Below, in pieces: positions 635-44,898 of a DNA stretch of 64,000 bases (its first letter is position 1; each line of letters begins with the position of its first letter). Where the stretch lies: IMG/VR virus record IMGVR_UViG_3300027749_000049, positions 64,005 to 128,004 of that record; one strand, 5' to 3'. Under the pieces are notes generated by a model. It was not told the DNA's origin. It saw only the letters and a program-made list of their open reading frames with translations, and searched no databases. The translations under genes were made by a program, and so were the position numbers. This stretch comes from a virus.

Positions 635-961
635 TTAGTCGGCAAGATCATTAACTATAATATATTCAAGCCAGCCCATATCGTATACAGTTTCACCATT
701 ATATAGATCATCCATAAATCTAGACCATTCATCTTCAGTACGACGGTCAATGAATTTATCAATAATTTGGCCAGTTCTCTCTTTTAGTTTGCGAATTGCG
801 GCATTAATCTCAGGATCGCTACCCCATTCATCTAATACCTTTTGGTATCTTTTGTCAAACGACTCAGGCTCGACAATTCCCAATTCCCTAAGTCTTGCTA
901 GGTTAGCCTCATTGTCTGATTCCTGGATCAAGTATTGCTTAAATAGTTTGATTTGTTTCAT
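635..961 (-). CDS. Putative head-internal protein (CTS-like N-terminus, NLARLRELGI motif)
   Basis: MKQIKLFKQYLIQE start; GATAAATA at 982-989 (minus). Confidence 0.7.
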   Translation of the reverse strand: MKQIKLFKQYLIQESDNEANLARLRELGIVEPESFDKRYQKVLDEWGSDPEINAAIRKLKERTGQIIDKFIDRRTEDEWSRFMDDLYNGETVYDMGWLEYIIVNDLAD

Positions 962-1053
962 TTTTAAAGAGATATTTTGATTATTTATCTAGGGTCGACC
1001 AATTTTAAAATGGATTAGGTACTTTAACTAAGTAATAATTTTAAATCAAAAAG

Positions 1054-1362
1054 ATGAAAAAGTCAACATCAAAAACAAAGTCTACTACCAAGGTAGCAGC
1101 AAAGGCAGTATCAACTCCAGTAGTTGCAACTGTTTCTCGTAGTACTAATAGCCGTAAAGGTGCTAGCTACAAAAAATTATCAATTCCACAAAAATTGGAA
1201 ATCATCACAGGCCGTAAGCGTCGTGGAGATAACCAGGTAATTGCTGCTGAATTGAATGTGACCCCTACTTACGTAAGTGGAGTAGTAAACGGTCGTCACC
1301 AAAATACTAAAATTGTGAATCGTATGTACGATAAAGTACGCGGTCGCAAGGTAGTTGCATAA
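1054..1362 (+). CDS. Basic DNA-binding protein (Lys/Ser/Thr-rich N-terminus plus HTH)
   Basis: NQVIAAELNVTPTYVSGVVNG HTH-like segment; highly basic. Confidence 0.6.
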   Translation: MKKSTSKTKSTTKVAAKAVSTPVVATVSRSTNSRKGASYKKLSIPQKLEIITGRKRRGDNQVIAAELNVTPTYVSGVVNGRHQNTKIVNRMYDKVRGRKVVA

Positions 1363-1392
1363 GTTTAGCAACTTACAACAGTCTAAAGGGAA

Positions 1393-1671
1393 TCAGTTAA
1401 TGGTTCCCTTTTTTGTGATTTGAACAGTTAGATCACCAGTGCCTTGCAGCAGTCGGTGCCATTCACCTTTTGGAATAATGACCGGTTTGGTTAGGACAAC
1501 TGGTAAACAGTTCTCAAATTGAATGAGCCAGTCAGTTTGGCCTAGTGATTCAACTACCCGATCTTCATCATCACGGTGCCAAGTAAGTTCTTCCCGATCA
1601 AGGTCGGCACTGAATTTTCGGACTGAGATTTCACCAGTAATTTGGGTTTCTTGAAATGGAAGTTGCATCAT
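1393..1671 (-). CDS. Small cupin-like protein
   Basis: WHRDDEDR and IPKGEWHRL cupin motifs. Confidence 0.6.
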   Translation of the reverse strand: MMQLPFQETQITGEISVRKFSADLDREELTWHRDDEDRVVESLGQTDWLIQFENCLPVVLTKPVIIPKGEWHRLLQGTGDLTVQITKKGTIN

Positions 1672-1777
1672 TTATTACTTTTTACCAAGTTGGCGTTTTA
1701 CTTCAGCTCTAACGCTTTCCATCTTTTTTGCATAAGCTGGATTCTTTTTACGGTTAAACACAACTTGTTGATTAATG

Positions 1778-2365
1778 CTACCAGAAACCTGGGTAAGTTT
1801 TGCCACCCCAAAGATGGGCATAGCGATTAATACGACAAGCCCAGTAACCTGCGCTCATGCGGTCCGTTTTAAGATGGCACTGGTGGCGAGCTGCAAAGCT
1901 TTTACGCGCAGCCGGATTACTAACCTTTGCAGTAAGTCCGCCGTGAACATCGCCAAATGCAATTTTCTTGACTTTACCCGTGGCCGGGTTCTTTACGTAG
2001 ACGTGATATTTCTTGGCTCCACCGCGTTGAGGTTTACCGATTTCTACGGTTTTACCGTGGTATTCGGCTTCAAAAATTGGAAAGTCGAGTAGGATAGTTG
2101 TGCCTTCAAATTGGGCAGTTAGGCCCAGGTCGGTATCCCTAAACAGGTCCTGATCTATACTAGACAGGCTAATTTCTCCAGCTTGCCAAACCCTTCGAGC
2201 CTCAACGATTAAGCGCTGATGGGCAAGACTGCCGGGTCTAAATACTGATTCGCAAACCGAGAGGCCGGCCACTAGGTGGTATTGCAGTGCCTCGTGTAGA
2301 GGAACCTTGTGCTCTGCTTTTTCTTGGTAGGCTTCAGTTATCCAAGCCTGGAATGGTTTCAACAT
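1778..2365 (-). CDS. Conserved phage protein with CTS-like N-terminus
   Basis: Probable start MLKPFQAWITEA at 2365; C-terminal KIAFGD...SFAARHQC...AGYWAC region typical of T4-like phage hypothetical proteins. Confidence 0.65.
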   Translation of the reverse strand: MLKPFQAWITEAYQEKAEHKVPLHEALQYHLVAGLSVCESVFRPGSLAHQRLIVEARRVWQAGEISLSSIDQDLFRDTDLGLTAQFEGTTILLDFPIFEAEYHGKTVEIGKPQRGGAKKYHVYVKNPATGKVKKIAFGDVHGGLTAKVSNPAARKSFAARHQCHLKTDRMSAGYWACRINRYAHLWGGKTYPGFW

Positions 2366-2430
2366 TTTCTCTTTTTCTTTTTTCCGGCCCGCCCAAGGGG
2401 GTAACCTTGGCGGTGCAGGCACGCCCAATT

Positions 2431-2811
2431 TTATCTGCGGTTACCCAACCCATACTGCATTATTAACTGTACCCCATTTTCATTAAAGCCTAATTCGCGT
2501 AACCGTTTTGCAAACGGTGCAAATATTGTACCTAACTCTTCTGGTCGCTGGCGATGAATTTCAGAGGCGACTGCTTTTGCTCGGCGTATCAATTTTTCCG
2601 GGTCAGTAATTAATTTACTCATACTCACGGCTCGGCCCAATGGGTTTGACCCCGCAACCAGGTCCCTGGCACGGTCTAGATCCTTGATATGCGGGCGTTG
2701 ACCATCAATTCGGCGGTCGGGTTGAACCTCTGCAATACCCAATTGGATAAGCCGGGCATAGTTAAGTTCAGTATTTTCAAATAGCTTAAATGAGGTTATG
2801 TAGTTTTTCAT
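2431..2811 (-). CDS. Putative head-internal protein (CTS-like, NYARLIQLGI motif)
   Basis: MKNYITSFKLFEN start. Confidence 0.7.
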   Translation of the reverse strand: MKNYITSFKLFENTELNYARLIQLGIAEVQPDRRIDGQRPHIKDLDRARDLVAGSNPLGRAVSMSKLITDPEKLIRRAKAVASEIHRQRPEELGTIFAPFAKRLRELGFNENGVQLIMQYGLGNRR

Positions 2812-2813
2812 AG

Positions 2814-43017: not shown

Positions 43018-43027
43018 TAATATAGAG

Positions 43028-43249
43028 ATGGATCAATTAGAAAACAAAAAAACCTATTCATTTAAGCTTGGTGGATTATATCCAGTCATTGCCTTTTGTA
43101 CTGCAATGATAGGTTACACAATTCATCATAGTATATTTTGGAGTATTATGGATTTCTTTTTTGCTCCATTTGCTTGGATGAAATGGTTAATCATGCATCA
43201 AGTAAATATTACAATCATTAAGGAAACGTTTTTCTTTTTTATACAGTAG
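43028..43249 (+). CDS. Small membrane protein
   Basis: Hydrophobic ORF. Confidence 0.6.
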   Translation: MDQLENKKTYSFKLGGLYPVIAFCTAMIGYTIHHSIFWSIMDFFFAPFAWMKWLIMHQVNITIIKETFFFFIQ

Positions 43250-43261
43250 TTCTTTACATAC

Positions 43262-43351
43262 GGAGAGGTACCAAAGCGGTTTACTGGACCAGTCTTGAAA
43301 ACTGGCGATCTTGAAAGGGATCCGTGAGTTCGAATCTCACCCTCTCCGCCA
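43262..43351 (+). tRNA. tRNA-Ser(TGA)
   Basis: Cloverleaf GGAGAGG/CCTCTCC, anticodon arm CCAGT-CTTGAAA-ACTGG, long variable arm, encoded CCA. Confidence 0.95.
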
Positions 43352-43374
43352 CATTTAATTAATAATAAAACCCA

Positions 43375-44064
43375 ATGATTAAAAACAGAACACCATACCT
43401 TGGTAAAATTAGACTTAAGTTTGAAAAGTTTCCTCACTATTCAGGAAAAGACAAACTAAATAAAGTACACCTAAACTTGGGCTTTACTAAATTAGTAAGT
43501 CGAATAACTCCATTTAAGGATTTTAAAGGCTGGATTGTAAACCCTAACTGTATTAAATTAATAGAGGAGAATACTGGCCTAAAGATAAAGACTCACACAG
43601 TCGATCACCATGGCCAAGGAGATGAGTTTCTTCTTTACCATTCAAGTATACACCCTGACGGTCATTACGTGGGATCAATTGAAGAGGGCTGGTGGTATTA
43701 TAATAACAAGTTAAGAGCAACCAAAGGCTCGCATCCACATACTGCATGGCATAAAGAAAAGAAACAATGGGTCGGTTATTCACATAGAGCTTCCCAGTCT
43801 TTTGGTAAAGGCGATAGGTTATTTACTGAGACCTGGACTATCCCAGTTAAAGATCTATTAAGCTATGATCGGTACTATATGAAACATATTGACAAGTTTT
43901 ATGAAGAGGTTGAACGCTGGGCCAAAACCGGAGCAACTGACGACTTAACCCTTGCAAAATGGGCTACTGACTATATTCCATTTAAGCTTAGAGGAGCTAA
44001 AACAATTCATTCATACGAACAGGCATATGAAGCAGCTGTTAACTTTGCAAAATACGTCAGCTAA
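43375..44064 (+). CDS. Hypothetical phage protein
   Basis: 229 aa ORF. Confidence 0.7.
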   Translation: MIKNRTPYLGKIRLKFEKFPHYSGKDKLNKVHLNLGFTKLVSRITPFKDFKGWIVNPNCIKLIEENTGLKIKTHTVDHHGQGDEFLLYHSSIHPDGHYVGSIEEGWWYYNNKLRATKGSHPHTAWHKEKKQWVGYSHRASQSFGKGDRLFTETWTIPVKDLLSYDRYYMKHIDKFYEEVERWAKTGATDDLTLAKWATDYIPFKLRGAKTIHSYEQAYEAAVNFAKYVS

Positions 44065-44325
44065 ATGAAGAAAGGTTCCCAAATTCGTGCTGAAATACTG
44101 GACAAGGACTTACGTAACTTGGCTGCAGAATTTGTAGAGAAATTAGAGACTGACCCATACCAACCGGGCGTGGTCCACCCACAAATATACCCAGACGATT
44201 TACAAGAAGTGGTTGAAGACCTTTTCTATATTAGGGGTTATTCTGAGGCAACCATTAAAATCTTTAGAAATAAGGACGGAGTTTCAATTAAGGTTGAAGT
44301 ATTGGACCGGGCTGGGAATAAATAA
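44065..44325 (+). CDS. Hypothetical protein
   Basis: ORF track. Confidence 0.6.
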   Translation: MKKGSQIRAEILDKDLRNLAAEFVEKLETDPYQPGVVHPQIYPDDLQEVVEDLFYIRGYSEATIKIFRNKDGVSIKVEVLDRAGNK

Positions 44326-44343
44326 CTAAAAGTTATTACCCTA

Positions 44344-44898
44344 GTGAAAGCTAAGAAATTTAAACAATTTGTAACCGAAGCAATTAAGCGCAGATCTGCA
44401 GATATTAGTGTTGACGTAGAAGAGTGTGTATTTGTTATTAATGATACCATTTATTTTATGACACTTGCAATTGATGCAGCAGTTGACCATGAACCAGCTG
44501 ATTCGTCAGTTGGATTATCAGCTTCAACTTATGTAGACGAATGGTGGTTAGATAATATTCCATTTTGTGAAAAATTAACAGATCCAGAAATTAATCAACT
44601 AATATTAGACCAATTAGGTTTAACTGTTAAAAATATGGATAGGCTAAGAGAGCTTGGAATAACTGATAAGCCTAAGACATCTATAATACCCGATATTATA
44701 TGGAATGCTTTAAATAAGTACCCAATGGAAGAGGTAACTGAACCTGAATTATCTCAAATACAGGATATTTTATCTAAACAAATTGATGCCTCTAGCTATA
44801 GGAATTTAATATATCACGATTTAACTGGAGACTTTGACGAGCGAGTTACTAGAGAATTAGATAATGAAGTTGACCATTATGATAATGGCAGATGGTAA
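44344..44898 (+). CDS. Putative head-internal protein (CTS-like, NMDRLRELGI)
   Basis: MKAKKFKQFVTEA; AATAAATA upstream. Confidence 0.7.
   Translation: MKAKKFKQFVTEAIKRRSADISVDVEECVFVINDTIYFMTLAIDAAVDHEPADSSVGLSASTYVDEWWLDNIPFCEKLTDPEINQLILDQLGLTVKNMDRLRELGITDKPKTSIIPDIIWNALNKYPMEEVTEPELSQIQDILSKQIDASSYRNLIYHDLTGDFDERVTRELDNEVDHYDNGRW

Follow-up and report, generated by a model that had tools for sequence, protein, structure and literature searches.

The window analysed here comprises 64,000 nucleotides of the IMG/VR virus record IMGVR_UViG_3300027749_000049 (record positions 64,005 to 128,004) and encodes seven proteins that together carry ten copies of a ten-residue motif, N-[LYFM]-x-R-L-x-x-[LI]-G-[IV]. 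We favor a reading, for which we judge the chances to be evenly balanced, in which each capsid-cargo module of this clade of large T4-related phages opens with a leader in two parts, the motif being the second. The first part of the leader would be a capsid targeting sequence (CTS), or a CTS-like helix, with hydrophobic-x-Glu at its end, as T4-type (S77) prohead proteases require. Next would come 1-21 residues of hydrophilic linker, and then a short capped amphipathic helix of the pattern (N/D)-phi-x-(R)-L-x-x-L-G-phi-small-(D/E/P), where phi is a hydrophobic residue. Single-module proteins would carry this leader at their N-terminus, and multi-module proteins would repeat it at each boundary, as in the products of 20342..21118 and 22581..24689 and in longer proteins elsewhere. 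We infer that the head protease cuts at phi-x-E within the chains. Whether two modules are encoded by one fused gene or by separate genes, the mature products would then be identical, and in each of them the helix would lie a few residues behind the newly formed N-terminus. The proteins are probably packed into the capsid, and the helix may perhaps serve as a docking element read by one common partner, whether in the prohead core, among the cargo itself, or after ejection.

The motif was mapped by a six-frame regular-expression scan of the window and of the whole 128,004-base record, of which the window is the second half (CheckV completeness 46%). The scan returned exactly the ten copies, in seven open reading frames (ORFs), that an initial annotation of this DNA had listed; the first half of the record contained no copy. 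For comparison, 2000 shuffles of the 184 called ORF products gave 0.0015 strict motifs on average, with a maximum of 1. Each invariant residue of the motif (Asn, Arg, Leu, and Gly) is written with 2-4 synonymous codons, and this variety places conservation of the motif at the protein level. Together, these comparisons of sequence demonstrate a motif that is real and selected at the protein level. A chance or compositional match is refuted by the ten copies set against 0.0015 expected, by the synonymous differences between copies, and by conservation in other genomes. The same evidence leaves a negligible probability for the broader alternative of chance match or recent gene conversion, which draws on the shortness of the motif. 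The copies and the elements around them are as follows.

635-961, minus strand: 108-amino-acid CTS protein; LIQE ends the CTS at 920-931; NLARLRELGI at 875-904.
2431-2811, minus strand: 126-amino-acid CTS protein; KLFE ends the CTS at 2776-2787; NYARLIQLGI at 2734-2763; an eleventh, weaker copy, AKRLRELGF, at 2485-2511.
2814-3272, minus strand: 152-amino-acid CTS protein; ALTE ends the CTS at 3228-3239; NLARLNQLGI at 3162-3191.
20342-21118, plus strand: 258-amino-acid two-module CTS protein; FINE ends the CTS at 20375-20386; NLDRLRQLGI at 20441-20470.
20342-21118, plus strand, second module: IYE at 20717-20725; NLNRLRQLGI at 20744-20773; homologous to the 22113 protein.
22113-22568, plus strand: 151-amino-acid CTS protein; KLFE ends the CTS at 22125-22136; NLARLRQLGI at 22164-22193.
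22581-24689, plus strand: 702-amino-acid three-module CTS protein; LDE at 22608-22616; motif at 22641-22670.
22581-24689, plus strand, duplicated unit: begins at LDE, 23100-23108; motif at 23133-23162.
22581-24689, plus strand, third module: internalized CTS KFSRPLTE at 23802-23825; NFKRLVEIGV at 23886-23915.
44344-44898, plus strand: 184 amino acids from a GTG start; CTS MKAKKFKQFVTE, with FVTE at 44368-44379; NMDRLRELGI at 44632-44661.

Numerous ORFs of the record begin with a T4-like CTS of the form MKxIKxFxxFINE. The T4-type feature, an N-terminal amphipathic tag of about 10 residues ending in hydrophobic-x-Glu, was present in all seven motif proteins, in agreement with the initial description of the carriers, when the 44344 protein is read from its GTG. 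An automatic CTS matrix passed three of the seven; the remaining four (MKNYITSFKLFE, MKQYIDQFHKFALTE, MKYLKLFE, and MKFLKPFNQLDE) are CTS variants by eye only. The carriers had also been called otherwise dissimilar, and this is true in part. At least five unrelated module types stand behind the motif. The second module of 20342 is homologous to the 22113 protein (residues 131-258 match residues 14-141, with an E-value of 1e-12 in a small local database), and the 22113 protein weakly matches the modules of 22581. Within 22581 itself, the reported module duplication with its 492-nucleotide spacing is real, with 42% identity over about 164 amino acids. The initial annotation had allowed that the motif might belong to a known shared domain. 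No Pfam or PHROGs family was found for the seven window proteins, no family over nine motif proteins of the related record G001, and no Pfam family over the motif in three longer proteins described below (P0125, P0129, and P0133).

Relatives by large terminase lie on the ~253-kb records G001 and G002 (77-78%) and on the 217-kb record G003 (69%). CTS proteins of these related ~250-kb phages also carry the core phi-x-x-L-x-x-L-G-phi. In G001, G002, and G003 it takes the form (N)-phi-x-R-L-x-x-L-G-L, usually followed by a small residue and then by an acidic residue or Pro. Across the four genomes, a profile built from 30 copies scored true copies at 11.7 bits or more and everything else at 6.8 bits or less, and it also caught three orthologue copies on which it had not been trained. 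A looser regular expression, allowing K/M at positions 3 and 4, caught unrelated proteins such as a metallophosphatase; these were removed before later counts, as were the LLRIPEIGI matches in G1_18372 and G2_115433. The profile gave 0 candidates in each of Sphingomonas phage PAU, Tenacibaculum phages PTm1 and pT24, and Flavobacterium phage MaF61, and it matched only 3 of 26 related IMG/VR fragments, most of which cover other parts of the genome.

The co-occurrence of motif and CTS proposed for the window was confirmed in all four genomes. By the automatic matrix, motif proteins had a CTS in 7 of 9 cases in G001 (Fisher p 2e-6), 5 of 6 in G003 (p 3e-5), 4 of 7 in G002 (p 0.0014), and 3 of 7 in our own record (p 0.025). 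Proteins missed by the matrix were mostly short CTS variants recognizable by eye, together with one protein cut by a contig end, one internal-CTS fusion, and the MGKFGKRR… family. By these criteria the motif is confined to CTS proteins. A borderline variant occurs in a CTS protein at record positions 59080-59883 on the minus strand, 4.1-4.9 kb before the window start, which reads MATIVNFNTWVSE-NIEHPRP-LKQLGDLGI. We left it out of the count because the G001 orthologue reads LVKLSDLDI, without the Gly.

Comparison of the four genomes revealed modules that are free-standing in one phage and internal in another. Five such fusion or fission relations were found between our record and G001-G003, and in the alignments the fusion and fission points fall exactly at the [CTS-like phi-x-E]-linker-motif. 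For example, residues 408-697 of the 22581 protein correspond to an entire free-standing 292-amino-acid CTS protein of G001 (46% identity, aligned from G001 residue 5) and also to a 209-amino-acid CTS protein of G003. In a 46-sequence alignment, the internal KFSRPLTE is aligned to the N-terminal MKLLKFxQYIxE. The 108-amino-acid product of 635..961 consists of one module only, which related phages carry internally, as module 2 of 211-213-amino-acid proteins (G001 and G002) and of a 185-amino-acid protein (G003). Residues 12-82 of the 2431 protein match an internal module (residues 190-260) of a 400-amino-acid G001 protein, the first and last parts of which are separate genes in G003. Two further proteins differ by an additional module that opens at the motif.

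Internal copies had been placed behind [ILV]xE sites in the initial annotation. IYE, LDE, and LTE are all present where expected; in 44344, the internal motif is preceded by a degenerate LDQLGL, and the nearest phi-x-E is FCE, 21 residues upstream. Across genomes, phi-x-E occurred 2-10 residues upstream in 9 of 12 internal-copy families, compared with 22.6% of background positions in the same proteins (binomial p 1.7e-4). The two-module G001 protein, encoded at 190199-190840, had 23 homologues, 20 of them full length, and its junction read [ML]-x-E-S in 20 of 20. The best conserved 20-residue window of this protein was HPERERNIERLRGLGLAPKK, with a mean column identity of 0.97 vs 0.81. In the single-module forms (635..961 and P0128), the N-terminal CTS ends in …QE-S or …NE-S at the junction position. 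As the single-module CTS ends at the same place as the internal junction, both gene layouts would give the same mature module. The earlier proposal of a modular polyprotein architecture is thus supported by fusion and fission at the junctions, by phi-x-E enrichment, and by the conserved junction, with the cutting itself predicted from sequence. Both marks of a polyprotein, protease-type sites at module boundaries and free-standing modules elsewhere, were found in these proteins.

The residues beyond the helix bear on a different arrangement, in which the motif would lie within a longer propeptide and a second cut after G-phi-x-E would remove motif and CTS together as an extended targeting signal. 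Sites resembling phi-x-E do follow several copies (LGIAE, LGIVE, IGVIE, and LGLAE), and SPN3US propeptides are described as removed by several cuts (PMC10052503). Glu follows G-phi-x in a minority of copies, the others having Asp, Lys, Ser, Pro, Asn, or Gln, whereas Glu occupies that place in CTS ends and in 8 of the 11 repeats of the G001 scaffold. We consider removal of the motif in this way very improbable.

The old duplication within 22581 allowed leader and following sequence to be compared in a single gene. Over the 35 codons of the leader (LDE, linker, motif, and AxEELDW) there were 5 nonsynonymous and 9 synonymous differences, while the following 45 codons had 31 nonsynonymous and 5 synonymous differences. 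Dominance of synonymous differences in the leader points to purifying selection on the internal leader and not to recent conversion. By this measure, the internal leader of 22581 is as constrained as the N-terminal one.

A CTS-linker-motif profile, run exhaustively against 1.84 billion representatives, recovered longer chains among 16 proteins at E <= 0.001, about a dozen of which are CTS proteins. Three of these have the following layouts.

P0125: 615-amino-acid CTS protein, 5 motif copies.
P0133: 779-amino-acid CTS protein, 5 motif copies.
P0129: 894-amino-acid CTS protein, 4 copies by regular expression and 8 by eye.

Nearly all copies in these three proteins stand 1-8 residues behind x-x-E. 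No relatives of P0129, P0133, or P0125 were found on viral or metagenome contigs. P0120, P0130, and P0134 are unrelated repeat proteins with a similar helix by happenstance. P0120 (5531 amino acids), which looks like a trimeric-autotransporter-type adhesin, repeats …DAVN-[VL]-x-QLK-x-LGL-T-x-D… about 40 times; the likeness to the capped helix is one of structural analogy and not of kinship.

The motif also differs in flavor between genomes. All 10 copies of our own record have the form N-phi-x-R-L-x-x-phi-G-[I/V], and G001-G003 have …R-L-x-x-L-G-[L/M]. In contigs L151, L152, and L145, D-L-x-[G/Q]-L-x-[D/E]-L-G-L stands at four positions orthologous to copies in the window. The terminase of the L145 record is 98% identical to that of our record, and the SmpB neighbor of L151 is 94% identical to that of the window; identity falls to 27-66% in the cargo genes on either side. 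Because Asn, Arg, and Ile/Val have changed together in four families, a single reader shared by the copies seems likely to us, though only as a suggestion from sequence.

A tentative and rather doubtful account, in line with the second address suggested in the initial annotation, takes this further and holds that the motif is a portable, protease-independent second-address tag, kept on each mature module and read by one fast-evolving partner. Candidate readers would be the helices of the cargo, bundling into an inner body; a component of the core or portal that orders ejection; or a host target. If this were true, the second-address tag would explain both why modules are so freely fused and split and why near-identical phages differ in motif flavor across the whole genome. 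Cut site and helix would then form a plug-and-play cassette, such that any domain behind it would be loaded, released, and delivered. Encapsulin cargo-loading peptides are short, conserved, and present on unrelated cargo, and they dock on the interior of an HK97-fold shell. They offer a model, by analogy only, for how a second address could work.

The proposed protease is present in the clade, as the relative G001 encodes an S77 protease domain in its 65.7-66.4 kb region (35.2 bits; cut-off 27). The domain and the scaffold form one open frame, found on L116 at 1-1947 of the minus strand (equal to G001:64465-66411; 649+ amino acids) and in G003 at 156284-158272 of the minus strand (662 amino acids). 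The G001 scaffold contains 11 exactly periodic 14-residue repeats of I-x-Y-x-x-Y-[LVI]-[AGS]-[E/Q/S/T], 8 of which end in E. Scaffold parts of the relatives have 10-11 periodic repeats of N-V-x-K-x-I-x-Y-x-x-Y-L-A-E. The scaffold repeat resembles the CTS in its aromatic-x-x-aromatic-aliphatic-x-Glu end, as if each repeat were one CTS with its cutting site, and the CTS a single scaffold repeat. The major head protein of G001 adjoins the protease-scaffold frame (62731-64410, minus strand). Its N-terminus, MATKIFKRLNDASVTE, includes FKRL, as in some motif copies, and V-T-E, which could be its own maturation site. Two scaffold-derived origins for the motif were rejected. Mimicry of the scaffold C-terminal tail is off-pattern by eye (the tail of the clade reads …YLDALKRRAQN), and a degenerate 14-residue scaffold repeat is at odds with the distance from CTS Glu to motif, which is not periodic (4-18 residues in the window).

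These genes are also relevant to the idea that the helix is a protease recognition element C-terminal of the cut, which would present the upstream phi-x-E or recruit the protease to it and have no later role. Tight coupling of phi-x-E and helix would fit, as would the invariant [ML]-x-E-S beside the most conserved block and the existence of an S77 protease in the clade. A spacing of 1-21 residues fits a fixed exosite poorly, and the helix is absent from most CTS sites and from all 11 scaffold repeats. Moreover, different flavors despite conserved genes that are 94-98% identical would need a changed protease. We therefore regard a role confined to protease recognition as unlikely.

Several observations weigh against the two-part leader. 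Cleavage, packaging, ejection, and binding are deduced throughout from the encoded proteins. In the 128-kb record, which is 46% complete, we found neither the PF03420 S77 prohead protease nor a scaffold or capsid gene. Three of the 12 internal families lack phi-x-E within 10 residues. For the third copy of 22581, as for 44344, the only site stands 21 residues ahead of the motif. No site is nearby in the G1_197402 family, where the corresponding residue in G002 is Gln. The distance from Glu to helix varies over the full 1-21 residues. The majority of CTS proteins lack the motif, so the helix is not needed for loading or for CTS removal. The parallel shift in flavor could also arise by leader exchange between genes. 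In P0129 and P0133 the repeated modules are paralogues, and the motif there may be no more than the helix with which each repeat of the domain begins. Finally, an AlphaFold model of the third module of 22581 (46-row alignment; predicted local distance difference test score, pLDDT, 83) has the motif as the last two turns of a helix spanning residues 14-35, with the invariant Gly starting a turn that leads into a second helix at 41-62. In this model the motif sits in a folded hairpin and not in a free peptide, and the family of this module keeps only L-x-x-L-phi-x-phi-G-phi, the Arg and Asn not being kept.

A motif that closes one helix of a folded hairpin may have a purely structural role. On that account the motif would be a starter helix, N-capped and Gly-terminated, that arrived with an ancestral cargo leader, was spread by descent, duplication, and leader exchange, and only insulates the flexible, cleavable linker from the folded module, with no reader. 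The confident hairpin, the retention of only the hydrophobic pattern and Gly in the 46-sequence alignment, and the paralogy of the P0129 and P0133 modules all fit it. Use of DAVN-VSQLKDLGL by the unrelated P0120 likewise suggests a generic short capped helix. Against these stand the conservation of the motif block above the domain cores (the 0.97 vs 0.81 noted above, with the 22581 duplication behaving likewise) and the occurrence of the motif ahead of at least five module types unrelated in sequence. In addition, surface-type positions (the N/D before the helix and the R at position 3) shift in parallel in four orthologous families. We hold a structural helix with no reader to be doubtful.

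We infer from the pattern an N-capped amphipathic helix with a Gly cap. Structural searches added little around it: Foldseek against the PDB with the third-module model of 22581 gave nothing at E <= 0.001, and VIA-align in its wide mode gave only generic helical matches to model residues 217-295, with the N-terminal hairpin barely covered in either search. ESM Atlas gave no usable match. A likeness to UBA or helix-extension-helix (HeH) domains was judged unlikely, as the region after the motif is not conserved and is often beta-strand-like. UBA-like and helix-extension-helix domains were not among the Foldseek or VIA-align matches, which barely cover the N-terminal hairpin; the model itself shows helix, Gly turn, and helix. 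Folding the 20342 protein from its sequence alone gave a poor model (pLDDT 47), which was used for helix positions only. Co-folding of the 22113, 2431, 2814, and 635 products without their CTS, run without controls, gave a score of 0.10 against a mark of 0.34 and is evidence neither way on whether the helices bundle.

The T4 CTS is the textbook route for loading protein into a phage head and has been used to engineer cargo-carrying particles. According to PMC9026906, T4 gp21 cuts after L/I-x-E; it breaks gp22, gp67, and gp68 up at more than one place and also trims the CTS from the internal proteins. PMC3012670 gives the CTS as the only element that T-even internal proteins have in common. Like T4 IPI, IPII, IPIII, and Alt in these accounts (PMC9026906 and PMC3012670), which are diverse proteins that begin with a short peptide ending in L/I-x-E, are loaded into the scaffold core, and are trimmed, all seven proteins described here begin with a peptide of this kind. 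Unlike the T4 cargo, they have a second conserved element behind the cut site, which would stay on the mature protein and which recurs within long proteins. Many Glu-specific cuts per chain by one protease are described for T4 core proteins and for the propeptides of phiKZ, 201phi2-1, and SPN3US (PMC9026906 and PMC10052503), and the G001 scaffold likewise has 11 periodic sites of the Glu-type cut. Fragments from the T4 core and the giant phages are mostly waste that leaves the head, whereas here each piece would be a folded module of cargo that retains the shared helix.

The polyvalent proteins of phages and conjugative elements (Iyer et al. 2017, PMC5512222) are likewise long and multi-modular and are thought to be packaged, delivered with the DNA, and processed into units. 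They contain known effector domains and often their own metallopeptidase (PMC5512222), whereas no Pfam domain was found in any motif protein here, and the proposed cutter is the head protease. The combination that marks polyvalent proteins, effector domains and a processing peptidase in one chain, was accordingly not found in the motif proteins. A full-text literature search, and passages of the T4 and giant-phage papers PMC9026906, PMC3012670, and PMC10052503, yielded no description of such a module-start helix.

With the two-part leader as the favored reading, the system appears to be a T4-type CTS cargo system with two additions: modules joined into chains at protease-type sites, and a shared helix kept wherever a module starts. 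The clade would in this way extend the CTS system to protease-releasable chains of modules, all of which share an N-terminal helix once released. Should a partner read this helix, the helix would act as a second sorting signal within the capsid, serving retention, ejection order, or a host target, and would provide a handle for loading several proteins from one gene. As a practical rule, phi-x-E followed by a short linker and phi-x-x-L-x-x-L-G-phi can be used to look for cargo modules in uncultured large phages, in which these genes are without family annotation.

The cultured phages nearest by terminase, at ~30-33%, are Sphingomonas phage PAU, Tenacibaculum phages PTm1, PTm5, and pT24, and Flavobacterium phage MaF61. 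Lipoprotein-type signals suggest to us that the clade infects freshwater Bacteroidota. A megablast search of window positions 20000-27000 against cultured phages matched nothing, and a DNA pattern specific for NLARLRQLGIA had 0 matches in IMG/VR. A homologue search with the 22113 protein found a single relative (93%). G+C content is 40-47% over window positions 1-19900 and ~35% in the remaining window. Three motif genes (635-3272) lie within a part of 43% G+C, and their motif flavor is the same as that of the low-GC genes.

Among the cargo genes, the phage encodes SmpB at window positions 28114-28536 on the plus strand (Pfam SmpB, E 2.7e-44). Two large genes on the plus strand, 24707-26428 (573 amino acids) and 26415-27806 (463 amino acids), lie between 22581 and SmpB; contig L151 is without both at the corresponding place. 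The 463-amino-acid protein is CTS-tagged, and its G001 orthologue has an additional C-terminal module that opens with the motif.

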